Assembly: GCA_964505525.1 (NCBI GenBank)
Contig: CAZDIQ010000001.1
Location: forward strand, 5,544-69,543
DNA length: 64,000 nt
Direction: 5' to 3'
DNA from: an uncultured Acidimicrobiaceae bacterium
GTDB lineage: Bacteria; Actinomycetota; Acidimicrobiia; Spongiisociales; UBA5794
Each line of letters starts with the position of its first letter. The first letter of the stretch is position 1. A program made the position numbers and the translations under genes. Under the pieces are notes generated by a model, which had not been told where the DNA came from, did not search any database, and saw only the letters and a program-made list of their open reading frames with translations. Of the stretch, positions 1 through 26,742 are shown piece by piece.

Positions 1-42
1 GACCGAGAACGTCGACATGCTCAACATGGCGACAGCCTACGA

Positions 43-3000
43 TCAGCCGCCAAGCTGTGCGAGGATGCCCGGCAGTTGCACATTGACCCGGTCGTCGACC
101 GTAGCAACCATCCGCGTCCGGACCGGGTCGCTGATACCAGCAGCAGCGAGCCGCCGATCGAACCCGGCGACGTCGAAACCCTGCAACTTCGACAACTGGA
201 ACGCCGCCTCCTGATCCGACATGTCGCCATACAGGCGCCGACCCTGAGTCGACGACCGCAACGTCGACGGTTCCACCCACGTCTTGCCCGGAGCGAACGA
301 CGGCTTGTCGGCACCCATCGCCCGGTACTGGCCGGAGCCGCCGACGTCAATCCGGTACAAGGTGCCACCAGACGTGAGGACGTTGTCGCCGCCCATCCCG
401 TACGCATCCCACGACGACGCCAACGCGTCAGCGTGGAACCCGTTACGTGCCTGCATCTGAATGTCCGGGGTCACGTCCGAACCGACGATCTTGCCGAGCG
501 AACCGTCCGGTTCCTGGATCGCCTTCTTCGCGATGAACGACCGGCCCTCATGATCGAAGATGGCGGTGTCGTCCACCGGGACGCCCAGCTGCCGGTACAG
601 CATCTGTGATGCCAACTCGGACTCGGCGTGCTGACGGGACTGGGCGGGCTTCACAAGATACTTCTGGCCGTCCTCGTCGCGGTACCAGCCGCCGCCGTTC
701 GAGCCGAGAGGGCCACCCGTCTTGTGCATCGCGTCGAACTCGGCCATCGACGACGGCATCGACGAGACAGGCGCATGAACCGCCTCCATCTCCGCTGCGG
801 CCGCCTTCTGCTTCTTCGTGTACGCCGCCTTCTGCCCCGGTGTCATCGAGTTGTAGTCGGTGGGCGGAACGGCCCCGCCGCTCTTGGTCCACTTCCCGTT
901 CGCGTCGCGAGGGACATCCCCCCCAGCAAACGCGAACGACACCGGGATACCCGACATCGCGATCCGTTGCGTCAACGACATCCCATGCCGTTTGCTGTCG
1001 ATCGACTCGCGGGCACCGAACAGACGGGCCTGGCCGAGCAGCTGAGTCATCGGCACCGAAACTTCAACGACACGCATCCGGCGCGGAGACTCACCGACCG
1101 ACAGCGTCGCCTCCGCCGCCCAACGATGATGCCCGTCGAGAATGAACCCGTCCGCTGACACCATGACCGGCTTATCGCCGGGCTCCATCCGGCCGGAATG
1201 AATCGCTGTGATCATCTGGCCGACCTTGCGGCCGTCCAGCTGGTTCTGCGTCGCACGCAGTTCGGCCGGGTCCTTCGTCGTCACCCGGCTAGTGATCCCC
1301 CGCTCACCGAGGTAACCGACGAAGTCATCAACCCGGTCCGACGGGATCTGCGGCATGTCATGACGAGCCAACTGATTGTCGGCCACCGCCCCGAACAGAT
1401 TCGGGTGACCGTCGATCGTCACCTTCGTCAAGTCGGACGAACCTGGCCGGGTACCCAACTCCTCGATCAACGGGACAGCAGCAGCCGAACCGACGGTCAC
1501 CTTGCCGCCGTCGATGATGACGTCTGCGTCACCGACTGCCGAGGCGTGAGCAACGCCACCGCCCCTCGCCCAGCGGCCCCACGAATCGCGGGGGACGTCC
1601 GACGACTTGAACACGACCGTCCCGGTGGCAGCAAACTCGCCGAGCCCAGACCCGCTCTCCACGATCGTCGCGCGCGGTTCCCGCTTCGAGATACCGGTGT
1701 TGTCGATCACGATCCACTCGTCCATCAAGCCGCGGGACGACCGGAAGTTCTCGAAGTTCTTCGTCGACCCGTTCGGCAGACGCGACTGTTCGATGTACGA
1801 ACCCGGCACGTAACGGCCGCCGTCCTGCCACCGCTTGAACGCGGACGCCTTCGACTCGGACACCGGGACCTTCACGAACACGCCACGCACCGAGTAGCCG
1901 TCGTTACGGAAGTTGCCGATATCACGGGCCGGACTCGACGCCATCGTCTTGTCGATGACGACGTTCATGCCACGAGCACGAGCCTCGATCACCATGCGGT
2001 CAGCGATGTGACCGGACTCGACATGCAGCAATGCGGCATGTTCCCCGTCCGTCATGCCCGGCACCCGTCGCACCATCCCCCGGTCCAACATCTCCTGCTT
2101 CACGCCGTCCGGGTCGATATGCAGGAAGCCGTCCGAGTCGACGAACGAACCACGCGTCTCGCGGCCACGATGGAAACCGTCAGGATGATTCAAGGCCGAA
2201 CCCTTACCTGCCCCCGGAGGCCCACCCAGGAACACGACCTCACGGTCGTAACGTGCGTCGCCGGACATCATCTTGTCGATGATCTCGTTGTGTTGTGCTG
2301 TGCGTTCAGCCGTCCATTCGTTGCCCGGCAACGCGTCATGTTGAGCGACCGTCGAAGCCGGGCCGTGCATATCCAGGTTCTCCAACACGGCGCTCCGGGC
2401 GTCGCCGACATCCGGGGCCGCAGCCAACCGATCGGAAAGATCGGAGATCGCCACATCAGTCTGAGCCGACGTAGCCCGACCAATCTGAGCGTCGCCGTGC
2501 AAGTCCGGGGCGCCGACCCCGCCCGCAGTCGGACCCTGCTGCGGTGCGCCCGGCGCCGAAGCGCACCCGGCACCCTTACACCACTTGCCGTCCGGTGCAC
2601 GCGGGACACCAGCCGTCGGGCCACCACCACGGTTACCACGGAACTCGGCGCGCTCGCCGCCGCAGGTAGGGCACACCGCGAACAACCGGAACGTGCGGAC
2701 CTGGTCACCCTCCCAGAACATGATCTCGTCGAACTCGACACGGCCGGAACCGTCACCGAGCGTCACGCCCCGAGACTTCTCGACGGTGAGCCCGGCCGCT
2801 GCCAGACTCGCAACCAACACCGACTGGGCGTCGCCCATCTCAACGAGCGGCCCCATCACGCCCTGACCGATCACGTCGCAGGAGAACGGGGCGACCCCCG
2901 CCGAGAACTCGTCCAACGACGCGGCGAGCACAGCAGCGTCGGCGTCGACAACAGCCGCCAGCGCAGTCACCTGATCGGATCGGAACGCGACGGTGAGCAC
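43..3000 (-). CDS. Polyvalent virion/cargo protein: zeta-toxin-like P-loop kinase + ParB-type nuclease + C-terminal kinase-like domain
   Basis: 985-aa ORF. Walker A 'VVFLGGPPGAGKGS' in a zeta-toxin/AAA-kinase-like context. 'ILDGHHRWAAEA' matches the ParB N-terminal nuclease DGHHR motif. C-terminal 'GGDNVLTSGG..YRIDVGGSG' resembles the HxDNxL / DFG catalytic loops of PI3/4-kinase or HipA-like kinases (weak). Carries three 'VPRDxxGKW' motifs and one 'TPGQKAAYTKK' motif shared with the neighbouring MuF protein. Confidence 0.6.
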   Translation of the reverse strand: MLTVAFRSDQVTALAAVVDADAAVLAASLDEFSAGVAPFSCDVIGQGVMGPLVEMGDAQSVLVASLAAAGLTVEKSRGVTLGDGSGRVEFDEIMFWEGDQVRTFRLFAVCPTCGGERAEFRGNRGGGPTAGVPRAPDGKWCKGAGCASAPGAPQQGPTAGGVGAPDLHGDAQIGRATSAQTDVAISDLSDRLAAAPDVGDARSAVLENLDMHGPASTVAQHDALPGNEWTAERTAQHNEIIDKMMSGDARYDREVVFLGGPPGAGKGSALNHPDGFHRGRETRGSFVDSDGFLHIDPDGVKQEMLDRGMVRRVPGMTDGEHAALLHVESGHIADRMVIEARARGMNVVIDKTMASSPARDIGNFRNDGYSVRGVFVKVPVSESKASAFKRWQDGGRYVPGSYIEQSRLPNGSTKNFENFRSSRGLMDEWIVIDNTGISKREPRATIVESGSGLGEFAATGTVVFKSSDVPRDSWGRWARGGGVAHASAVGDADVIIDGGKVTVGSAAAVPLIEELGTRPGSSDLTKVTIDGHPNLFGAVADNQLARHDMPQIPSDRVDDFVGYLGERGITSRVTTKDPAELRATQNQLDGRKVGQMITAIHSGRMEPGDKPVMVSADGFILDGHHRWAAEATLSVGESPRRMRVVEVSVPMTQLLGQARLFGARESIDSKRHGMSLTQRIAMSGIPVSFAFAGGDVPRDANGKWTKSGGAVPPTDYNSMTPGQKAAYTKKQKAAAAEMEAVHAPVSSMPSSMAEFDAMHKTGGPLGSNGGGWYRDEDGQKYLVKPAQSRQHAESELASQMLYRQLGVPVDDTAIFDHEGRSFIAKKAIQEPDGSLGKIVGSDVTPDIQMQARNGFHADALASSWDAYGMGGDNVLTSGGTLYRIDVGGSGQYRAMGADKPSFAPGKTWVEPSTLRSSTQGRRLYGDMSDQEAAFQLSKLQGFDVAGFDRRLAAAGISDPVRTRMVATVDDRVNVQLPGILAQLGG

Positions 3001-3013
3001 GACCAGATGCTAG

Positions 3014-3256
3014 TCAGACGGCATCCGGGAGAGCGTCGTACACGGCCCGCGCTTCCTCCTCGGTCATCAACCCGAGATGCTGCGCCGACGTGATCGTCGC
3101 GTTCGACACGTTGTTCACCACGTCAGCGCCGCCGTCCGTCTCCGGATACTGCGGGGTGTCCCGATACACGAACTGGGCTGCCGCCGCAGCACCAAACTCC
3201 TCCAACGTGAACTCGCCGTCATGCAACCGTTCGAGCAGAGCGAGGAGCTTGTTCAC
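3014..3256 (-). CDS. hypothetical small acidic protein (80 aa); possible immunity/chaperone for adjacent toxin proteins
   Basis: ORF with non-Arg-rich composition, sandwiched between the MazF-like and polyvalent genes and 3 nt upstream of the polyvalent gene. No recognisable motif. Confidence 0.35.
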   Translation of the reverse strand: MNKLLALLERLHDGEFTLEEFGAAAAAQFVYRDTPQYPETDGGADVVNNVSNATITSAQHLGLMTEEEARAVYDALPDAV

Positions 3257-3990
3257 GAATCCAGTGTACGAGAACGACCGACACGGAACCGGCGCATCCT
3301 CAGCTGCACCTTCGGTGCCCCCTGCCGTTCGGTCAGATTGTCGATGATGTCCTGGAACACCGGCTTCTTCACGTAGGCACCCTCACGCCGATAGTTGACG
3401 TCGTCGATCTGCACGAACCGGTCCAGCTTCAAGAACGACTCCCGCTCCGACTTGTCCCAGTCACCCGAACCGATCGACGGTCGGTCACCGTCACGCCCAG
3501 CCTTCGACGTCAACTGCACACCGACCAGGTTCTTGCCGTCCTTCGTCCGTCCGATGATCAGCACCGGACGGTCCTTCGACTGGCGCGGGTCCTCCTCGAA
3601 CGGCACCCTGGCCCACACGATCTCGCCGGGGTCGGCGTGACCGTCCGGGTGGCGCGGCCGGTACGCGATCCGAACGTCCTCGAACGGGACATCCGGAAGA
3701 ACACCAGCCGGACGCGTCGGACCGCCAGGCGGCGGCGGGATACGACGACCAGGCGGCGGCGGGATCGGACGACCGGAACCGCCCGGCCCACGAGTCCAGC
3801 GGCCATCCGAGTCGCGTGGCACATCAGCCGACCCGGCAGCGACCAAAGCCTCCTCGACCGGCGGATAGACGTACGGGTCGAAGTCCGGGTCGTCGTCAAC
3901 GATGTCCGCCCACCACTCGATCACCGTCGACGCGGCACCGTCGCTGACGATCTCCAACTCGGTGTCAGCCATCCGCGCTTGCGTACTCAT
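3253..3990 (-). CDS. MazF/PemK (Kid)-like mRNA-interferase toxin domain protein with N-terminal 'VPRD..GRW' motif and Pro-rich linker
   Basis: C-terminal 'GEIVWARVPFEEDPRQSKDRPVLIIGRTKDGKNLVGVQLTSKAG' aligns to the Kid/PemK core 'GEIWLVSLDPTAGHEQQGTRPVLIVTP...VVPVTSGG'. N-terminal ~110 aa contain 'ADVPRDSDGRWTRG' and 'RPIPPPPGRRIPPPPGG'. ATGA overlap with upstream MuF gene. Confidence 0.55.
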   Translation of the reverse strand: MSTQARMADTELEIVSDGAASTVIEWWADIVDDDPDFDPYVYPPVEEALVAAGSADVPRDSDGRWTRGPGGSGRPIPPPPGRRIPPPPGGPTRPAGVLPDVPFEDVRIAYRPRHPDGHADPGEIVWARVPFEEDPRQSKDRPVLIIGRTKDGKNLVGVQLTSKAGRDGDRPSIGSGDWDKSERESFLKLDRFVQIDDVNYRREGAYVKKPVFQDIIDNLTERQGAPKVQLRMRRFRVGRSRTLDS

Positions 3991-6900
3991 CAGTCGACCA
4001 ACTCCACTTCCATGTACCGGTAATGGCGTCCCTGGTTGCCGTAACTGTCGCCCGGCGTGATGTGATCAGAGATCATCGTCACTCGATACTTGCTGTTCGC
4101 GGGCATGATCGTCTCCGACTCGTGCGTGTAGGACACCAATGATGGCACCCGCCGCGAATCGGTGAGCTTCACGATGACACGACGGTTGCCATGATCGGAG
4201 AACGACTCGGCGATGTTGAGGTCAACCGACCATGACCCGAACCCCTTGTCGACGTAGACGTCGCCGACCTTCAAGTCCAATTCCTGCATCGTCGAACCCG
4301 AACCGGAACCCTTGCCCCGATACATCTGCCGGGGAGCCGGTGTCGCCGCAGGCCCCTTGTACGCCGACTTCATGTCGGCGACCTTCTTGGTCACAGCAGG
4401 GCCGTGACTCTCGCCGCGTTTCATCGTGCCGTTCATCGGCCCGTACCCGGACCCGCCATACGAGTCGATGGCATACCGCTGATCCGTCGTCAGCTTCGCT
4501 GATTGAGCCGACTGACGTTGCGAATGGTGACCCTTACCGACGTCCTCGCCCTTCAACGGTCCGGCAGCCTTCACCGAGTTCATGAACGACTCGCGCGCGG
4601 CGCCCCCGGTGTAGGTGTGGACCTCGTGCGCTCCAGCCGGACCGGACGTCTTCGCGCCCTTCAAGTTCTGGCCCTTCGTGTACGCCGCCTTCTGCCCGGA
4701 CGTCCACGAATCCCACTCCGGAGGCTTCGGAGTTTCGAACTTGTTCGGCTGCTTCGGGTTGTTCTTCTTCGTCCACGCCGCCTTCTGACCCGGAGACATC
4801 GACGACCAGTTCGCTGGCTTACCGACCGCGCCCGGCGCGGCGACAACCGGCACAGCCGTCGGCTTCGCCGGGAACCCGGAGGCCACCCCGTTCTGCATCT
4901 TCGCCGTCGCCAGATGCGAACGAGGGATCTGTTCGTCCTGATAACCGGACGCTTTCAAAGCAGAGACGTTCGCCTGATAGTCGGCCTCATGAAACTTGGC
5001 AAGCGACGCCCGTTCTTCCGGGGTGTGACTCGCCTTGACCTGATCGACGGACTTGCCGGAGTGGTGAGCGATCAGAGCGGCCCGCTTCTCATCCGACATG
5101 GCGTCGATCTGGTCATCGGTGAACATGACCCGAGCCCCCGTCGGGTTCGGGCCACCCGTCGGTCGACGTTCCCCCGTCTCACGCAACACGGCACGACGAG
5201 ACTCCCTCGGCCCGGCCGCGTGCCCGTCGTTGTAGCCCAACTGTTCGTTGAGCACCTTGCGGTCAGCGATGTGCTGATCGTTCATCGCGCGCATGGCGTC
5301 GCGACGCTCGTCCGGAGTTGACGGCGTCAGCTTCGGAGCGTTCTTCGCCAGGTAGGCGTCGACCGTCGCGTCCGACGCCCCGTCCACGTCCGGCTTGTCC
5401 AACGTCCTACCACCGTCGATCTTCGAGGAGATGTGGAACTGCTTCATCTCCTCCAATTCGGCGGCCTTCGCCAGCTTCTCCTGTTCGGCGTCGTACGCCG
5501 CCTGCTTCGCCGCGGCAGCCATAGCAGCGTTCTTCTTCTTCGTGGCGGCCGCCTTCTGCCCCGGCGTCATCGGAGACATGTCCATCTCCAACTGGCCGTT
5601 GCACTGTGCGCCTTTGCACCACTTCCCGGTCGGGTCGCGAGGCACCGCGGCAGCCGACGCGGTCACCGCCTCGATCCAGCCACCACAGTCCGGGCACATC
5701 ATCGACGCCGACGCGACCAACGGATCATCCAAGTCGTAGATGTGATCCGGGTCAACGACCTCACCGCCGACGATCCACTGGTCATACGCACCGAAGAACG
5801 GCGACACCCGCCGCGTCGCGAGGAGCCCCTGGACGGGCTGATCGAAGACGTCCAAGTCCGGGTCGTCCCAGCCAAGTGGGAACGCCACCACTTCGTCGTC
5901 GATCCGGTCAGTCGCCTCGGCCTCCGTGAGCGCGGCGAACCGGACACGAATCACCGACAGGCCAGCAGCCTCCCAGGACGGCCGTACCGGATACGGCTTC
6001 TCCCCGCGATGCTTGTTGCAGCCCGAGCATGACGGGATCAGGTTCGGGAACGACTTGATTCCACCGTACGATCCGCCTTCGTTCAACGTCAGGATCTTGT
6101 CCTGCTCCATCGACGCGTGACCGCCGCGTCCCTTCGGGGACGTCTTGATCCCGCAGTGAGTGCACGGCACATACCCGCGCTTGTTACCGCCGTACTCGTC
6201 GAACAAGGCTTCGCCGCGGGCGCGGCGTGTCGCCGCCGAACCACGGTTGTCGCCACCCGCCCGGCCCTTACCTTCCTTCGCTTTCTGGGCCTGCTCCTTA
6301 TTGTGGGCGATCTTCTCCGCTGACGGCTGCGGCACATCGCGGGCCTTCTGATTCGACAGGGCCTGCGTCTCGGCTAGCTCGGCTTCCGACGCGAACCATT
6401 CGGCCGGGGCCGACACACGAGCCTGCGGCGACTTCTTCGCGAACTCGGCCGCGTCCATCGTCTCCAACATCTGGCCTTCGTTGCACTGTGCGCCTTTGCA
6501 CCACTTCCCGGTCTGGTCGCGTGGCACCGCAGCGATCCCGGCAGCGAACTCCGACGGCACTTCTGGCAGGCCGCACCGGGCACATACCGAAACGGTCGAA
6601 GCGATGAGGACCTCGCCTGGCAGTGAGATGGGCTGAATGGTGTCTGAATCGACCGGTATGCCGTTCACGACGTACTGCGTGTAGTCCAGGTCATCGACAT
6701 AGTTGACGGTGAGAGGACCGACGAGAGTGGTCAACCGTGGCAGGTCGTCACGGGTGAGAGCGAAGTCGCCTCCGCCGATCATGTCCCAGCCGTAAGCCCG
6801 AGCCGACACGGTCTGACCGTCGACCCATCCGGCAGCGGCCACGAGCCCGCTAGCAGCCCGGAAACAGGACGTGCACGACGGCAGCAGATTCCCGGCAGCG

Positions 6901-8228
6901 AGCGACCCTCCCGCCGACCACGGCACGATCGGTTCCGGGACGATCATCGCCATCCCGGCCGTCGGGTCATCAGTCAGCTTCAACCCGCAATGCACACACG
7001 GCACGAAGCCACGGTCGTTCCCCCCGAACTCGGCGTACAGGTCCGAACGAGCCCGGTTCCGGGCAGTGACCGACGGTGCCCGCGTCGACCCGGACAACTC
7101 GACCCGGCCAGCACGGCCCCGCTTGTACCGGGCACGCTTCTGAGCGGCACCGAACACGGCCCGCGGCGAATAACCCTGCGCGGTGAGAACCGTGTCCGAG
7201 CCGCGCATCGTCGCTCGTAGCTGCTGGATCAGCTGACCACGAGTCATCGAATGACGACCGACAATCCCTTCACCGCGGGCGTAGGCGAGCAAGGTCGAAC
7301 GGTTCATCTGATCGAACCGGTCCGGGCAGTCCGGGCCTCCCGCCAACCCTTGCAGGCAGAGGGCGCGCAGCACCGCGGCTTGCAGTTCGCCACGGTTCAT
7401 CGTCGACCGGCCGTCGATCGACAAGGTTTGCGCCTTCGCTGTCAGTTCGGCCTTCGTCGCGCCGATCACGCGGCGGGCCTCGGAGCCTTCGACGTAGCCA
7501 AGCTCGCACCGGCAGTTCACCCTCAACTCGAACGGCAGCAGCGGGTCGCCGGGGTAGCGGGCCTGGTAGCCGCCGACTGTGAACGTCGACCCGAACGGGA
7601 CCGTTTCCTGGTCGGCTGCGGCATGCTCGAACCTGACCCGGATATCTCGTTGCGTGATCCAACGCAACGCCGCGGGCTGCGCGTCCTGCATCCCTTCGAA
7701 CAGGCCGCCGTTCGCTGCGCCCTGCAACTCGGTGCGAGCCACCTGATCGGCGATCGCGTCAGTGAACGGCCCGTCCGTCGTCAGTCCCTCGCGGACCGAG
7801 GCAGCATCCCATGCCAGCCCGGACTGTTCACGAGCAGCGATCCATTGATCGAGTCGCAACCGGATCGACGGGGCATAGTCGATCAGGCCAAGCAGTTCCG
7901 ACGCGGCATGACCTACCCGCAAACCGAGCACACCGAGCACACCGAACGTGAGCACCCCGGCCATCAGACCGTCCAAGGTGGCGTCGCCCATCTCGTCGGA
8001 GATGTGCTCGGTGATGATCTCCTCCCACTCGTCGTCGGTGATCAGCTGCTCGTCGTTCGCTGCGGCCGTGAGCGTGCCATGCCGGGCAGCGATCCGCGGG
8101 GCCACCAGGTCCGCGGCAGCCTGGTAGGCGCGCCGGAACGCTTCGAGGCCGACCAGCCATGTCTCGTCGTCGAGCAGCTGGACTGGTTCGGAGTCGACCG
8201 CTTCGGCCAAGTCCATCGCCACGGTCAC
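3990..8228 (-). CDS. MuF-like minor capsid protein / polymorphic toxin with C-terminal ADP-ribosyltransferase (exoenzyme R-S-E type) domain
   Basis: 1412-aa ORF immediately downstream of portal. 'ELRVNCRCELGYV' matches the MuF/SPP1 gp7 CRC signature. Two Cys-rich 'YVPCxHCG...NLxPSCxxC' modules. C-terminal ~200 aa carry 'YRG' (Arg), 'GFGSWS' (STS-like) and 'THESETI' (ExE), the ordered catalytic triad of C3/Vip2-type ARTs. Repeated 'VPRDxTGKWCKGAQCN' and 'PGQKAA(A/W/Y)TKK' motifs. Confidence 0.65.
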   Translation of the reverse strand: MTVAMDLAEAVDSEPVQLLDDETWLVGLEAFRRAYQAAADLVAPRIAARHGTLTAAANDEQLITDDEWEEIITEHISDEMGDATLDGLMAGVLTFGVLGVLGLRVGHAASELLGLIDYAPSIRLRLDQWIAAREQSGLAWDAASVREGLTTDGPFTDAIADQVARTELQGAANGGLFEGMQDAQPAALRWITQRDIRVRFEHAAADQETVPFGSTFTVGGYQARYPGDPLLPFELRVNCRCELGYVEGSEARRVIGATKAELTAKAQTLSIDGRSTMNRGELQAAVLRALCLQGLAGGPDCPDRFDQMNRSTLLAYARGEGIVGRHSMTRGQLIQQLRATMRGSDTVLTAQGYSPRAVFGAAQKRARYKRGRAGRVELSGSTRAPSVTARNRARSDLYAEFGGNDRGFVPCVHCGLKLTDDPTAGMAMIVPEPIVPWSAGGSLAAGNLLPSCTSCFRAASGLVAAAGWVDGQTVSARAYGWDMIGGGDFALTRDDLPRLTTLVGPLTVNYVDDLDYTQYVVNGIPVDSDTIQPISLPGEVLIASTVSVCARCGLPEVPSEFAAGIAAVPRDQTGKWCKGAQCNEGQMLETMDAAEFAKKSPQARVSAPAEWFASEAELAETQALSNQKARDVPQPSAEKIAHNKEQAQKAKEGKGRAGGDNRGSAATRRARGEALFDEYGGNKRGYVPCTHCGIKTSPKGRGGHASMEQDKILTLNEGGSYGGIKSFPNLIPSCSGCNKHRGEKPYPVRPSWEAAGLSVIRVRFAALTEAEATDRIDDEVVAFPLGWDDPDLDVFDQPVQGLLATRRVSPFFGAYDQWIVGGEVVDPDHIYDLDDPLVASASMMCPDCGGWIEAVTASAAAVPRDPTGKWCKGAQCNGQLEMDMSPMTPGQKAAATKKKNAAMAAAAKQAAYDAEQEKLAKAAELEEMKQFHISSKIDGGRTLDKPDVDGASDATVDAYLAKNAPKLTPSTPDERRDAMRAMNDQHIADRKVLNEQLGYNDGHAAGPRESRRAVLRETGERRPTGGPNPTGARVMFTDDQIDAMSDEKRAALIAHHSGKSVDQVKASHTPEERASLAKFHEADYQANVSALKASGYQDEQIPRSHLATAKMQNGVASGFPAKPTAVPVVAAPGAVGKPANWSSMSPGQKAAWTKKNNPKQPNKFETPKPPEWDSWTSGQKAAYTKGQNLKGAKTSGPAGAHEVHTYTGGAARESFMNSVKAAGPLKGEDVGKGHHSQRQSAQSAKLTTDQRYAIDSYGGSGYGPMNGTMKRGESHGPAVTKKVADMKSAYKGPAATPAPRQMYRGKGSGSGSTMQELDLKVGDVYVDKGFGSWSVDLNIAESFSDHGNRRVIVKLTDSRRVPSLVSYTHESETIMPANSKYRVTMISDHITPGDSYGNQGRHYRYMEVELVD

Positions 8229-10312
8229 ACTCCGACAGGAGCGAGGACAGCCTGCTCGACGATCCCCGCGACCATTGCCTGCGGGACGCGCAGCCCGTTG
8301 ACCGGACGGATATCACGCAACAGGTTGTCTTCGGCGTACTGCTGCATGTCCTCGGCCAGCCGGAACGCTGCGAACGATGCCCGGTCAGCAGCGTCGCGCG
8401 GTTCGAACCCGACTCCTTCCAGATAGTCGGACATCCAGGCCCGAGTCTGAATGGACAGTTCATCCCACGCGTCCTTCAACAGCACCTTCGGCGTCAGGGA
8501 GAACTCGGTCAACTCGCCAGCGGTGACCATCGACATGACCTGCGTCGCACGGACGTGCTTCACCCGGTCACGCAGGATCGGGTTCTTCGTCTTCGCCAGA
8601 TTCACGATCCGGTTCCCGGCGCGTTCCATCGCCCGGCCGAGAGCGGCGTCAGCGGCAGTCGTCAACCGTTCAACCATCATCGACGCGACCACAGCCTCAT
8701 CAACGTTCGCCGGTTCCTCCGAACCGGTAGCAGGCACAGTCTCATCGGGTGCCACCGGATCGTTCTCCGTCGTCTCGTTGTCGAGCGGGGTGCCGACCTG
8801 GCCGATCTGCTCCGCGTCGACGTCCTCCATGCCAGAGATCAACGGCAGCAACTTCGCGTACACCGCTGGCTGCGTCGACACCAGCTGCCACAGACGACGC
8901 TGACGGATCGTGTCCTTCGACGCCAGGTCGGCCTTGCTGAACCCGTTGGCCGTGAGAATCGCCTCGTCCGACAGCCAGTCAGCAAGGTCACGGGCCGACT
9001 TCGCTTCGTCATTCCGGGCGATGACCGGCGACGGATCAAACTCAACCTTGAACCCGGCGGCCTCCTCCTCAGACATGCCCTCGAACGCCATCAGCATCGG
9101 ACGCAGATACGAGTTCGTGATGAAGTCGGCGATCAGCTGCCCGATCGGCTGGATGTGCTTGACGATGAACTCGGCGTCGATGTTCGCTGCGGTCCAATGA
9201 TTCGCCGTCGACTTGCCGGACACGATCTCCGGAGGGGCGTCCAAGCCTGCCGCCAACCGGCCGAGCGCCTCTTGACGGAGCGACTGCAACGACAAGGCAT
9301 CCAGGTCGCGGGCCAGCACGATGATCTCAATCCCGGAGCCGCCCTCGCGGCGTGGCCCGGTGATCGCCAACGGCATTACCCGTGACGCCGACGTCGGGTC
9401 GAGCAGCGGGGCCGTCATGTGTTCGAACAGTTCGTCGACGAAGTCCGGTTCGCCGTCCTCGACGTCAGGGTCCGAGTCGTCGAGCGGCGTCGCGCCCATC
9501 ACCTGCAAGTCGTCCGGGATGTAGATGAGGTTCGCCGGGATACGCGACTTAGCGATGGCGTCGACCACCTGTGTGAGCGTGACGATCTCCTGCAAGATGG
9601 GCAGAACCCGGCGAACCTCAGAGTCAGCCAGATCCGAGTAACGCGGCGACGACCGCCAGATACGAGCCGTGTACGACTCGTCGTCCATCGGGACGGCCTC
9701 TGTGAAGTTCGCCCGCTTCCGCATCAACTTGCCTTCGGCGTCAACGTAGACCTCGTCGACCGACAGGAACTCCCACACCAAGTCCTGGTTCTCGTCGTTC
9801 GTGCCGCACAGATGCGCCTCACCCGTGCAGTACAAGTTCCAGGCGCAGCGGCGCACAAGGTCTTCCATGCCGCCCTGCGGGCCGACGAACGCCCGCATCA
9901 CGTTCGACGGCCGGTCGTCGTAGTCGTCGTCGGTTTCGTCCTTGTCGTCGATGGCCGGGTCGTTCGCCAGCCAGCTGGCCTGTTCCTTCGACCACTTCCG
10001 GACCGGGAACGAGCACAACGACACAGTGTTCGCCTGCAAGTTCAGCACCGCCCCGAGTTCCCCGACCTCGATCGCGAAGTCCATCGACTTCTGCTGCCAC
10101 GTCCGGTCGGTCTTCGACATGAGCCGACGCCGCGAACGGATGACCCGATCCTCGTCGCTGATCTTGCGGAGCGCCGACGACGACACTTTCGGGTTCCGGG
10201 ACGGTTGCTGCATCGCGAACTCGACCGGCTTCGTGGAGAACAGACGCTTCTTGCCCTCATCCAACGACACAGGCTTCTTCGGTTGACGCGCCATCGGCGT
10301 CACGCTACTCAA
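8225..10312 (-). CDS. portal protein
   Basis: 695-aa acidic protein directly upstream of the MuF gene; size, position and composition typical of portal proteins. No motif-level proof. Confidence 0.5.
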   Translation of the reverse strand: MSSVTPMARQPKKPVSLDEGKKRLFSTKPVEFAMQQPSRNPKVSSSALRKISDEDRVIRSRRRLMSKTDRTWQQKSMDFAIEVGELGAVLNLQANTVSLCSFPVRKWSKEQASWLANDPAIDDKDETDDDYDDRPSNVMRAFVGPQGGMEDLVRRCAWNLYCTGEAHLCGTNDENQDLVWEFLSVDEVYVDAEGKLMRKRANFTEAVPMDDESYTARIWRSSPRYSDLADSEVRRVLPILQEIVTLTQVVDAIAKSRIPANLIYIPDDLQVMGATPLDDSDPDVEDGEPDFVDELFEHMTAPLLDPTSASRVMPLAITGPRREGGSGIEIIVLARDLDALSLQSLRQEALGRLAAGLDAPPEIVSGKSTANHWTAANIDAEFIVKHIQPIGQLIADFITNSYLRPMLMAFEGMSEEEAAGFKVEFDPSPVIARNDEAKSARDLADWLSDEAILTANGFSKADLASKDTIRQRRLWQLVSTQPAVYAKLLPLISGMEDVDAEQIGQVGTPLDNETTENDPVAPDETVPATGSEEPANVDEAVVASMMVERLTTAADAALGRAMERAGNRIVNLAKTKNPILRDRVKHVRATQVMSMVTAGELTEFSLTPKVLLKDAWDELSIQTRAWMSDYLEGVGFEPRDAADRASFAAFRLAEDMQQYAEDNLLRDIRPVNGLRVPQAMVAGIVEQAVLAPVGV

Positions 10313-19054: not shown

Positions 19055-19332
19055 TTGTCGATGGTCACACGGGCCAGGTTCTCGGCGTCGAGGCCGTACC
19101 CGCCGTGACCGGCCTCGGCGAGAACGGACGTCTTCGCACCGCGGGTCTTGCTGATGCGGACGGCGTACTCGTCCGACGGGAGGAGTTCGACGAACAGGTG
19201 GGCTGTCGCGTGGGCGAAGCCCATCTTGAAGCGGACGGTGTTGGCGTCGACAATCGTCGCCTCACGCAGTCCGAGTTCCATGAACGTCCGGATGCCCAGC
19301 TGGGCTTGAAGTTGGGCGTAGTCGATGCTCAT
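19021..19332 (-). CDS. hypothetical protein
   Basis: ORF in operon. Confidence 0.35.
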   Translation of the reverse strand: MSIDYAQLQAQLGIRTFMELGLREATIVDANTVRFKMGFAHATAHLFVELLPSDEYAVRISKTRGAKTSVLAEAGHGGYGLDAENLARVTIDKWVAVCDQKGW

Positions 19333-19673
19333 GCTGCGGCCCGCAGCTTCTTCGTGAGGGCGGCCTTCTGACCGGGGGTCAGTCCTTCGTACAGGTTGCT
19401 GACGTCCTCCTGGACGGCGACGAGACGCAGATTGACACCGACGGTGATCCGGTCGTCGTTCCGGAACGAGCGGGTCTTCTCGCGGCCGGGCTGCCCGCCG
19501 AACACGGTGAGTTCGGTGCCGCCGTGACGGGCGTACCGGAACTTGAATGGGAACTGTTCGCCGTCGACGTTGATCAACGCTCCGAGGGTCATCAGGTCAC
19601 CGGTCGTGGTGCTGGCGGTGGCCTCGTGGCCGAGGTTGACCTTCCCCATCTTGCGACTGGTTATTGCGGTCAT
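19329..19673 (-). CDS. hypothetical protein ending in 'LTPGQKAALTKKLRAAA'
   Basis: First gene after conserved leader copy B (SD GAAGGAG 7 nt from ATG); C-terminal shared motif. Confidence 0.5.
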   Translation of the reverse strand: MTAITSRKMGKVNLGHEATASTTTGDLMTLGALINVDGEQFPFKFRYARHGGTELTVFGGQPGREKTRSFRNDDRITVGVNLRLVAVQEDVSNLYEGLTPGQKAALTKKLRAAA

Positions 19674-19679
19674 CTGCAC

Positions 19680-24604: not shown

Positions 24605-25216
24605 ATGGCGAACAGGAAACGGAAGACGAAGGCGGAGCTTCAAGCCGAGGCCAAAGCCGCCGAGCAGGAACGGGTCGTGGTCTGGGCCGAACAGTTCGGG
24701 GCACCGATCGCGATTCTGCAAGGCTGGAACATCGACGACGGGACATGGCATCCTCAGTCACCGGTCGGGCTCATGTTGCAGGCCATCGCCTCACGAGGGG
24801 CGCATATCACGACCGCCGCACAACTCGGAGGGCTGCGGAACATCATGCAGCTGATCGCCCGTGGTCACGAGTACATGGTCGACGCCGCCGAAGACCGGGC
24901 CTACATCCCGATCGACGTGCGTGTGTTCGTCGACCTGGTCGTTCAGATTGAGCAGGCCGAAGCGTTGATCGAAGTCGAACTCGTGAAGACGGTCCGGGAC
25001 GGGGCGAAGACCGACCCGAAGATCGCGTTGGCGATGCTGTCGCGACGGTTCGGTCAACGCTGGCGTGAACAGCAGGCCATCTTCACCGCCGACGAACACG
25101 ACGAACGTGACGCCGCCGTGTCGAAGGTGCTCGCGAACCCGGACGCGGCGTTGGCGCTCGCCGAGATCGCCCACGAAGTCGAAGACACGGTGCAGGAGCA
25201 CGAACGCGGTAGCTGA
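24605..25216 (+). CDS. terS: terminase small subunit (putative)
   Basis: Basic N-terminus 'MANRKRKTKAEL', about 200 aa, stop overlaps terL start (TGATG). Confidence 0.5.
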   Translation: MANRKRKTKAELQAEAKAAEQERVVVWAEQFGAPIAILQGWNIDDGTWHPQSPVGLMLQAIASRGAHITTAAQLGGLRNIMQLIARGHEYMVDAAEDRAYIPIDVRVFVDLVVQIEQAEALIEVELVKTVRDGAKTDPKIALAMLSRRFGQRWREQQAIFTADEHDERDAAVSKVLANPDAALALAEIAHEVEDTVQEHERGS

Positions 25217-26742
25217 TGCGTACCCACGACCTGGCCTCACGGGCGTGGAAGGCAATGCCCGACACGATGGGCCGCCGACTGTCCGACGGCACCTACACGG
25301 CACCGGAGCACGTCAAGCTCATCTCATGGCTGCTGACGTTGAACGCGAACCGGTACGTCCCGCGGCTCGGGATCTCGATGCCTCCGGGTTCAGGGAAGTC
25401 GGAGGTCATCGACTACTACGACTCGATCCACCTGTTGGAACACGACCCGCGACGAAGGATCATTCTCGCCTCCTACTCCGGTGAACTGGCCGAGGAACAA
25501 GGCAAACGGGTCCGCAACACGATCGAGTCGAACTATGACCTGCTCAACCTCCGGCTCATGCAAGACAGCCGGGCCGCTGACCGGTGGCGTACCACGATGG
25601 GCGGCGGGATGTGGACCGTCGGCATCGGCGGTTCGATCACCGGTCGCCGCGCGTCGAACTTGAAGATCGACGACCCGCACAAGAACTTCGCCGAAGCCAT
25701 GTCGATCAAGAACCAGGTCGACACCTGGAACTGGTACGGGTCCGTGGCCCGCACCCGCATGCTGCCCCGCTCGTCGCTGGCAGTCGTCCAAACCCGGTGG
25801 GCTGAGGGTGACCTGATCGGCCGGTTGAAGTCGAACGACGAAGGCAAAGACGACTGGCTGTTCGTGTCGCTCCCGGCGATCGCCGAGAAAGACGAGACGA
25901 TCGTCACCGTCCTCGGCGACTGGTATTACAAGCTCACCGCGATGGGCGTCACCCGGTTCCCGGTATGGGAACGGGAGAAAGGTCAAGCCCTGTGGCCCGA
26001 GTTGGAACCGGGGGTGCCGTGGTTCGACGAAACGGAGTACGCCGAGATCCGCGCCGACGTCGGCGAAGTCGTCTGGGCTGGGCTGTACCAGCAACGCCCG
26101 TCGCCCGCCGAGGGCAACCTGTTCAAACGATACGACTGGCGGCGTCTCGACGGGCCGATGCCAGCAGGCACCTACACGTACGTTCGGCGTTGGGACTTGG
26201 CGTCAGTCGAAGGGGGCGGTGACTGGACGGCCGGGATGCTCATGGCGATCAATCACGAGACACGGCACATCTACATCATCGACGCCCGCCGTGCCCGGCT
26301 CGGCCCGACCGAAGTCGAAGCGTTCGTGCACATGACCGCTGTGGAGGACCGCGACAACTACGGCACCGTTCTCACCCGCGTTGAACGCGAACCGGGATCG
26401 TCCGGCAAGAACGTCGAGACGAACTACATGGCGAACGTCCTCGCCGGGTTCCCCGCCAAGTTCCTGCCGTCAACCGGAGCGAAGGAGGTTCGAGCCCTGC
26501 CGTTGTCCGGTCAGGTAGGTGCCCGCAACGTGTACCTGTGCCGACGGGTCCGAGCGAACGGGGAGACGACGATCCCGGACTGGTGGGAGTGGCTGATCGA
26601 GGAAGCGGCCGTGTTCCCGAACGGCACACACGACGACCTCATCGACGTCGCCTCACTCGCCTACGTCGATCTGATCGAGGAACAACCGCGCCGGTCACGG
26701 ACGAAGGTCGGGTCGTCGGCCCGCAAGCAACTCGGGTTCTGA
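25216..26742 (+). CDS. terL: terminase large subunit
   Basis: Walker A 'GISMPPGSGKS', Walker B 'LKIDDPH', 'LYQQRP', C-terminal nuclease 'THDDLIDVASLA'. Confidence 0.9.
   Translation: MRTHDLASRAWKAMPDTMGRRLSDGTYTAPEHVKLISWLLTLNANRYVPRLGISMPPGSGKSEVIDYYDSIHLLEHDPRRRIILASYSGELAEEQGKRVRNTIESNYDLLNLRLMQDSRAADRWRTTMGGGMWTVGIGGSITGRRASNLKIDDPHKNFAEAMSIKNQVDTWNWYGSVARTRMLPRSSLAVVQTRWAEGDLIGRLKSNDEGKDDWLFVSLPAIAEKDETIVTVLGDWYYKLTAMGVTRFPVWEREKGQALWPELEPGVPWFDETEYAEIRADVGEVVWAGLYQQRPSPAEGNLFKRYDWRRLDGPMPAGTYTYVRRWDLASVEGGGDWTAGMLMAINHETRHIYIIDARRARLGPTEVEAFVHMTAVEDRDNYGTVLTRVEREPGSSGKNVETNYMANVLAGFPAKFLPSTGAKEVRALPLSGQVGARNVYLCRRVRANGETTIPDWWEWLIEEAAVFPNGTHDDLIDVASLAYVDLIEEQPRRSRTKVGSSARKQLGF

Follow-up and report, generated by a model that had tools for sequence, protein, structure and literature searches.

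The 64-kb window analysed here, by which we mean the whole stretch of DNA, carries on its minus strand a gene for a 245-amino-acid (aa) protein with a MazF-fold domain, and we conclude with moderate confidence that this gene is a stand-alone cargo cassette of a phage's head-packaged effector arsenal rather than a toxin–antitoxin (TA) module. The window is phage DNA with a G+C content of 64% and contains genes for portal, tape measure, terminase, amidase and tail proteins. The MazF gene is encoded among the virion head genes (portal, MuF and protease-like), and the same short peptide motif occurs in its N-terminal extension and in the two large polyvalent proteins on either side.

The open reading frame (ORF) is present as described in a first-pass annotation of the sequence, with an ATG start, and the identical 245-aa protein was found on four assembled contigs. 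Compared with a 69%-identical homologue on the metagenomic contig L005, the gene is under purifying selection, with a ratio of nonsynonymous to synonymous substitution rates (dN/dS) of 0.28. Its true start may be Met7, as in the L005 homologue. The gene and its parts are as follows:

3253-3990, minus strand: 245-aa gene, comprising acidic leader, boundary motif, proline-rich linker, MazF-fold domain and basic tail
3826-3990, minus strand: N-terminal acidic leader (aa 1-55), net charge about -12, predicted to be disordered (predicted local distance difference test, pLDDT, <50)
3781-3843, minus strand: boundary ("junction") motif VAAGSADVPRDSDGRWTRGPG, one of six copies in the window
3796-3822, minus strand: motif core VPRDSDGRW (aa 57-65), from the sequence
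3703-3780, minus strand: proline-rich linker GSGRPIPPPPGRRIPPPPGGPTRPAG, a companion of the MazF cassette with the same lead-in in relatives
3295-3702, minus strand: MazF/PemK-fold domain (aa 97-232), from Pfam, the AlphaFold2 model and Foldseek against the PDB
3568-3570 (Arg141) and 3505-3510 (Thr161/Ser162), minus strand: candidate catalytic residues, from conservation and hhalign
3256-3294, minus strand: basic C-terminal tail RRFRVGRSRTLDS, from the sequence, pLDDT ≈72

The assignment of the C-terminal half to the MazF/PemK toxins, which the first-pass annotation had made, held up. Residues 121-218 matched the Pfam family PemK_toxin (PF02452) with an expectation value (E) of 3.6e-7 and a score of 30.8 bits, above the gathering cut-off of 23.1 bits, and the protein also matched PHROG 1936, "MazF-like growth inhibitor". 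An AlphaFold2 model built from 59 homologues had a pLDDT of >90 over residues ≈100–225 and showed one globular domain in the polypeptide, not several unrelated effector domains. When this model was compared with the PDB using Foldseek, the best 50 matches were all MazF/YdcE/MoxT/MazF-mt toxins (probability 1.0, target template modelling score 0.63-0.75), including S. aureus and B. subtilis MazF, MoxT, M. tuberculosis MazF-mt1/3/9 and E. coli MazF. A fold unlike that of MazF or Kid, which the annotation had named as one result that would overturn it, was not what the comparison gave. Across the 59 homologues, Arg141-Pro142 is invariant and Thr161/Ser162 is kept as Thr/Ser, Ser162 being at least 90% conserved. 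In an hhalign comparison of low probability, R141 fell opposite R29 and T161 opposite T52 of E. coli MazF. The MazF-fold domain also contains a conserved 20-aa insert (G174-x-G176-x-W178) that classical MazFs lack. PADLOC and NCBIfam searches returned no matches, and neither Pfam nor PHROG detected a MuF domain in the 245-aa ORF, MuF being in the preceding gene.

Read along the minus strand, the genes come in the order portal, MuF/HNH/ADP-ribosyltransferase (ART) protein, 245-aa MazF gene, 80-aa ORF and Zeta/ParB protein. The neighbours are:

8225-10312, minus strand: portal gene, head of the block (PHROG 776 portal, E 2e-79)
3990-8228, minus strand: 1412-aa MuF / 2x HNH / ADP-ribosyltransferase polyvalent protein (Pfam, PHROG)
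3014-3256, minus strand: 80-aa acidic four-helix ORF with a GTG start
43-3000, minus strand: 985-aa Zeta-toxin kinase / ParB-like polyvalent protein (Pfam Zeta_toxin, E 7e-12)

The stop codon of the MuF/ART gene overlaps the start of the MazF gene in the sequence TGATG, and the stop of the MazF gene overlaps the GTG start of the 80-aa ORF in GTGA, bearing out the earlier description of a gene embedded and translationally coupled between the MuF-ART and Zeta polyvalent genes. A self-contained, autoregulated two-gene operon is therefore not what is found here, since these stop/start overlaps join the MazF gene into a long late operon. Nor is there an adjacent cognate antitoxin of the MazE/AbrB, ribbon-helix-helix or Phd type: no antitoxin-like gene lies upstream, where the 1412-aa MuF/HNH/ART protein is encoded, and a search for antitoxin Pfam families among the 36 small predicted proteins of the window gave no matches. 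The missing antitoxin of the first-pass annotation was thus confirmed.

On a longer assembled contig with identical genes, the Zeta/ParB gene is followed by a gene for a 494-aa protein that matches the PHROG "head maturation protease" (E 5e-30); a PDB sequence search with this protease-like protein gave no match. HExxH zincin motifs, as expected of a processing peptidase, were sought in three window proteins (MuF/ART, MazF and Zeta/ParB), and none were found. The layout of the head module is unusual. The large terminase gene (25216-26742, plus strand) lies ≈15 kb from the portal gene (8225-10312, minus strand), on the opposite strand, and on the longer contig the protease-like gene is followed by replication-type genes (AAA_24 and others), not capsid genes. 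The portal protein is only ≈25% identical to portals of known actinophages (Mycobacterium and Gordonia phages), and a search of nucleotides 1-9000 for near-identical DNA in deposited phages gave no match.

Residues 1 to ≈96 of the 245-aa protein are predicted to be disordered, and the VPRDSDGRW motif and proline-rich linker that the first-pass annotation had pointed out both lie in this region. The linker reads GRPIPPPPGRRIPPPPGG; its "RPIPPPPG...LPDVPF" lead-in also occurs in the relatives P0002, P0010, P0122-P0125 and L022. The acidic leader, in comparison, is conserved only in P0002, the L005 homologue. All six frames of the 64 kb were scanned with the pattern [VIL]PR[DA]x2-3G[KR]W, which matched six times: once in the MazF protein, twice in the MuF/ART protein, three times in the Zeta/ParB protein and nowhere else in the window. 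The five copies outside the MazF gene are:

6501-6527 and 5619-5645, minus strand: two boundary motifs in the MuF/HNH/ART protein (motif scan)
2581-2607, 1570-1596 and 889-915, minus strand: three boundary motifs in the Zeta/ParB protein (motif scan)

The six copies have a stretch of ≈20 residues in common, after which the sequence is Gly-rich. At the DNA level, the copies differ at synonymous positions; it is therefore the peptide, not the DNA, that is conserved, and selection acts on the peptide. The same observation led us to reject the idea that the motif is merely a DNA recombination hotspot. The earlier description of the N-terminal extension as being of a cargo type agrees with these results, since the motif is common only to the two polyvalent neighbours, and homologous modules elsewhere are flanked by equivalent motifs.

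Two further observations were made on these motifs. Three of the six VPRD copies, in the MuF/ART and Zeta/ParB proteins, sit in CxxC...CxxxxC arrangements (e.g., MCPDCGG...VPRDPTGKWCKGAQCN), which look like zinc ribbons; the cysteines are missing from the copy in the MazF gene. Another short motif, M(S/T)PGQKAA(Y/W/A/L)TKK, is present in five copies on the minus strand of the window (823-840, 4683-4700, 4776-4793, 5547-5564 and 19359-19376). Four of these are in the MuF and Zeta polyvalent proteins, twice at a distance of 12-20 aa past a VPRD motif, and the fifth forms the C-terminus of a 116-aa ORF (19329-19679). This second motif resembles the AAxKAWxTRK / GAxKAW boundary type of loci L012, L016 and L018.

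A word-indexed search retrieved 858 relatives of the MazF module, and an exhaustive HMMER search of 1.84 billion representatives retrieved 614 clusters. The closest relatives are of phage type. In 20 of the 33 best representatives, the module is internal to multidomain proteins of 497-2745 aa, in which its partners are topoisomerase IB, GNAT, RelA/SpoT, ART and ParB-like domains. In the relative P0125, an HNH-bearing polyvalent protein, the MazF cassette, including the RPIPPPP linker, lies between two junctions of the same type as in the window (Zn-ribbon plus VPRxxDGKWCKGAGC). The syntenic contig L005 has the stand-alone arrangement of the window, and a second syntenic contig, L020, has the same neighbours and no MazF gene. 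These arrangements, taken together, indicate that the gene behaves as an optional, movable and insertable cassette. Against deposited phages, a tblastn search with the 245-aa protein gave two matches, H1 (MT835738.1) and H2. H2, an unannotated record, is 42% identical over the MazF domain. H1, filed in INPHARED as "Bacteriophage sp." (L145), was rejected as a phage homologue, as it appears to be a bacterial lepA/rpsT locus: the stretch of the record that was examined looks like an actinobacterial chromosomal locus with ATP-grasp, alpha-E, PemK-like, rpsT and holA genes, and the record may be misfiled as phage.

In eight of the relatives (P0005, P0006, P0122, P0124, P0126, P0127, P0128 and P0140), a ParB-like domain (DGHHR/GHHR) comes after the MazF-like module, usually as the very next domain; in the window, the ParB-like domain is encoded by the next-but-one gene (43-3000). 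Three embedded relatives (P0122, P0124 and P0126; 1846-2745 aa) also carry HEYGH zincin-like motifs, and in these proteins the sequence FHLQGQHDQQ(S/T)HAGG is repeated up to 10 times. The repeats could be a cleavage site for the protein's own putative peptidase.

Four types of short motif flank the phage-type MazF modules: (F/Y)xxxQPRDxxG(K/R)(W/F), xFACxDxxCxPPxxGGxGGS, FHLQGQHDQQxHAG and FTHxGAxKAW. Such a boundary motif was present at most 60 aa upstream of 28 out of 29 phage-type modules and at most 45 aa downstream in 19 out of 22, and different types occur within one protein. On contig L013 (1-20582), many separate genes, among them RelA/SpoT-like, ART and glycosyltransferase-like ones, carry the Cys-type motif close to the N-terminus, with at least 13 copies within 20 kb. 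There and on L004 (7900-14200), many genes in a row have the form xAVFAC(H/Y)SxxC(R/A)PPxSGGxGGS at a distance of 10-15 residues from the N-terminus, and it occurs at internal junctions as well, so that to judge from the sequences it looks like a leader common to a whole effector battery. A generic form of the window's motif, HPRDxxGKF, occurs in at least 120 viral contigs or loci. The ORFs that bear it have a median length of 701 aa among the matches listed, with (E/D)(F/W)xE before the motif and a Gly/Ser run after it. Pfam scans of nine carriers placed it between a portal or DUF2213 domain on one side and ART, NUDIX, TopoIB, LPD3 or kinase-like domains on the other. Among 5.8 billion proteins, a profile of the boundary motif, too short for such a search, found nothing at E ≤ 10, and a search of PMC5512222 and PMC5576092 for words of the motif, linker and junction type turned up no description of boundary motifs.

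We suggest tentatively, as a possibility that for now we would not call probable, that short peptide motifs of this kind (VPRDxxGKW/HPRDxxGKF, xFACxDxxCxPPxxGGxGGS, FHLQGQHDQQxHAG and GAxKAWxTR) form a general boundary code that marks the cargo modules of capsid-packaged effectors and serves as a packaging or proteolytic-release signal. Under such a code, a MazF-fold RNase from a solitary actinobacterial (Rv2405-type) family would have become an injected effector without an antitoxin.

The nearest cellular relatives are actinobacterial proteins of 160-200 aa, annotated as PemK/MazF toxins. Proteins from Nocardia, Rhodococcus, Arthrobacter and Pseudonocardia are 40-50% identical over the domain (E 1e-24 to 1e-26), and the subfamily signature ADPGEIVW...GKDRPVLV...LTSK...REGA is present in the 245-aa protein. 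In Rhodococcus and Arthrobacter, the cellular gene is divergent from lepA and close to rpsT; in Pseudonocardia, it is also solitary. At these loci there was neither room for nor any sign of an adjacent antitoxin gene. The sole candidate for a small upstream antitoxin, an ORF in L010, was rejected, as it translates to a Cys/Ser/Pro-rich sequence that is not protein-like and has no counterpart in L006 or L009. Since the cellular relatives are solitary, the subfamily as a whole lacks an antitoxin, and the phage gene is not peculiar in this respect. The TASmania database lists M. tuberculosis Rv2405 as a lone PemK_toxin protein of 189 aa (PMC6504116). We place Rv2405 itself in this PemK-like subfamily, as an inference from protein length, Pfam family and the neighbouring lepA gene rather than from an alignment.

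Effectors fused to a portal, MuF or head protease domain have been read as proteins that are packaged in the head and injected (PMC5512222, PMC9503650, PMC3482391). Following this precedent, we propose that the 245-aa protein would be a late product, made alongside the portal, the MuF/HNH/ART and Zeta-kinase/ParB proteins and the head protease. Its disordered leader, with the boundary motif of this lineage (VPRDxxG[KR]W, then a Gly-rich stretch), might direct it into the procapsid or mark a point of trimming, as it might for the neighbouring polyvalent proteins, and the trimming could be done by the adjacent 494-aa protease-like protein. The MazF-fold domain would then enter the next host together with the ejected DNA and cut host RNA there, as an endoribonuclease that is sequence-specific and does not depend on the ribosome; its purpose would be host shut-off or counter-defence. 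An antitoxin would not be expected, because this is a late gene of a phage that kills its producer: the producing cell would be committed to lysis, and the whole subfamily appears to work without one. Nor are immunity genes visible for the adjoining ART, Zeta kinase, HNH and ParB-like modules. In this scheme, the packaging of the protein, its processing at the motif, its ejection, its RNase activity and its RNA target are all putative. The first-pass proposal that the toxin is delivered with the virion and is no TA module draws support from the comparative evidence, but virion delivery itself stays an inference from context.

Several points weigh against this proposal. The 245-aa protein itself lacks a MuF or portal anchor, and its presumed packaging and ejection are deduced from gene context; the role of the motif as a targeting or trimming signal is likewise putative. 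The leader, which only two sequences cover, was modelled with low confidence. PDB sequence searches with the 245-aa protein and with a 9-sequence profile found no MazF, and only the fold search links the domain to solved MazFs; because of this lack of a sequence-level match to any solved MazF, we regard the domain as a divergent branch. Endoribonuclease activity is a prediction, and the supposed equivalence of the active site to that of MazF rests on a weak profile alignment, plus the fold. The antitoxin-less cellular relatives may mean that the domain is weakly toxic, tightly regulated or very substrate-specific. Finally, a search for k-mers depleted on the sense strand only, as candidates for a MazF site avoided by the phage genes, gave none that were convincing; only palindrome avoidance was seen.

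That avoidance of 6-bp palindromes is strong over the whole window: of the 35 palindromes for which at least 10 copies are expected, 11 occur at most twice. Observed and expected counts were 0/51.5 for CCCGGG, 0/47.4 for GCCGGC, 0/20.7 for GGATCC, 0/19.7 for CTCGAG, 2/24.2 for ATCGAT, 0/12.4 for CCATGG and 0/12.3 for CTGCAG. It looks like restriction-site avoidance.

The first-pass annotation had named the 80-aa ORF downstream of the MazF gene a candidate immunity/chaperone factor. The ORF is a genuine gene and is conserved. It is 62% identical to its counterpart in L005, with a dN/dS of 0.14, and L020 has an 81-aa homologue (45% identity) between the ART protein and the Zeta polyvalent protein. 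A single-sequence AlphaFold2 model (pLDDT 67) predicts four helices. The protein had no family match in Pfam, PHROG or NCBIfam/PADLOC, its model had no significant fold match, and a word-indexed search found only the ORF itself. We considered the possibility that the two genes form a type II TA pair in reverse order, in which the acidic 80-aa protein would be the antitoxin or immunity factor and neutralise the MazF domain in the producer or in lysogens. Such a pair would fit the translational coupling through the GTGA overlap, the opposite charges of the two partners (about -10 for the 80-aa protein, about +4 for the basic MazF domain), the purifying selection on the ORF beside the MazF gene in L005, and the rule that immunity genes usually follow the genes of polymorphic toxins. 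However, L020 keeps the homologue without any MazF gene, and ≈20 embedded modules as well as the solitary cellular relatives have no such partner; for these reasons, the ORF is unlikely to be a dedicated immunity factor for the MazF protein, and the earlier suggestion is weakened. The pair also lies inside a late structural operon instead of being an autoregulated unit of its own, and no DNA-binding or antitoxin family or fold was detected in the 80-aa protein. We therefore consider a reverse-order TA pair quite unlikely; the ORF is more likely tied to the Zeta and ART proteins or to head assembly.

Two other explanations leave the antitoxin aside. The protein might be a late intracellular RNase that is never packaged and degrades host or early phage RNA in the producing cell, for late expression or nucleotide recycling, its leader being a leftover linker of domain shuffling. 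The conserved fold and catalytic residues and the expression with late genes would suit such an enzyme, as would the lack of an anchor domain and the fact that PHROG files related proteins under host takeover. A leftover linker is hard to square with a motif that is under selection at the peptide level and confined to proteins of the head module, and homologous modules are fused into polyvalent architectures of the portal, MuF or zincin type; we think this explanation unlikely. The CcdB/MazF fold also serves non-nuclease functions, and the domain could instead be a non-catalytic module, packaged or not, that binds nucleic acid or a host protein (e.g., as a gyrase- or antitoxin-directed decoy). 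That the cellular relatives are tolerated without an antitoxin would agree with this, and so would the conserved insert absent from classical MazFs. Yet the Arg-Pro and Thr/Ser at the MazF catalytic positions are invariant or nearly so in the 59 homologues, and the top fold matches are all RNase-type MazFs, not CcdB, which makes a non-catalytic role very unlikely in our view.

If the favoured reading, that of virion cargo, is true, an RNA-cleaving activity is added to the known repertoire of head-packaged phage effectors. Such effectors are already known as a class; what would be added, with partial support so far, is the MazF-fold module and a stand-alone, leader-tagged form. MazF toxins have been studied almost entirely as halves of TA pairs. 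Here, the domain appears to be offensive, virion-delivered and antitoxin-less, and to come from a solitary actinobacterial family that includes an uncharacterised type of M. tuberculosis protein, so that the phage gene would offer a way into the function of Rv2405-type proteins. Packaged cargo in uncultured phage genomes could be recognised by the boundary motifs as a simple signature, which might also serve to engineer proteins into capsids. We regard the boundary-motif system as the part most worth further attention.

The arrangement recalls the internal proteins and Alt of phage T4, in which an N-terminal capsid-targeting sequence is removed by the prohead protease. The likeness lies in the T4 logic of small enzymes with a short common N-terminal signal that are encoded with the head genes, packaged and injected. 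In L013, many separate effector genes have an equivalent motif at 10-15 aa from the N-terminus. There is, however, no sequence relationship with the T4 proteins, the motif described here also occurs at internal domain junctions, and its roles in targeting and cleavage are putative. With MazEF, Kis-Kid and PemIK, the protein has in common the fold and the predicted catalytic Arg and Thr/Ser; it differs in having neither an antitoxin gene nor an autoregulated two-gene operon, in its ≈96-aa N-terminal extension and ≈20-aa insert, and in its lack of a sequence-level match to solved MazFs. The Rv2405-type solitary actinobacterial proteins are its closest cellular relatives and, like it, have a low-complexity N-terminal extension and no antitoxin. 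Their genes, in contrast, occupy a conserved chromosomal housekeeping locus (lepA, near rpsT), and the proteins differ in their N-terminal segment and lack both a boundary motif and a phage context, whereas the 245-aa gene is in a phage head operon.

For polyvalent, MuF and portal-fused effectors, the comparison was made with Iyer et al. 2017 (PMC5512222), Zhang et al. 2012 (PMC3482391) and Jamet et al. 2017 (PMC5576092); a text search of these papers and of PMC9503650 found no mention of MazF, PemK or CcdB. Unlike the MuF polymorphic toxins (Jamet et al. 2017), the 245-aa ORF has no N-terminal MuF domain fused to the toxin. The slot downstream of it, where such toxins have a cognate immunity gene, holds the acidic, coupled 80-aa ORF that L020 keeps without a MazF gene. 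Unlike the polyvalent effectors, it is a separately translated, single-domain protein with no MuF, portal or peptidase domain. The likeness to these head-packaged polyvalent effectors is that the MazF gene lies among head genes, beside MuF-ART and Zeta-kinase polyvalent proteins that have the same inter-domain motif, and that the MazF domain itself is found inside large multidomain phage proteins together with ART, ParB-like, TopoIB, GNAT, RelA/SpoT and HEYGH-zincin-like elements.

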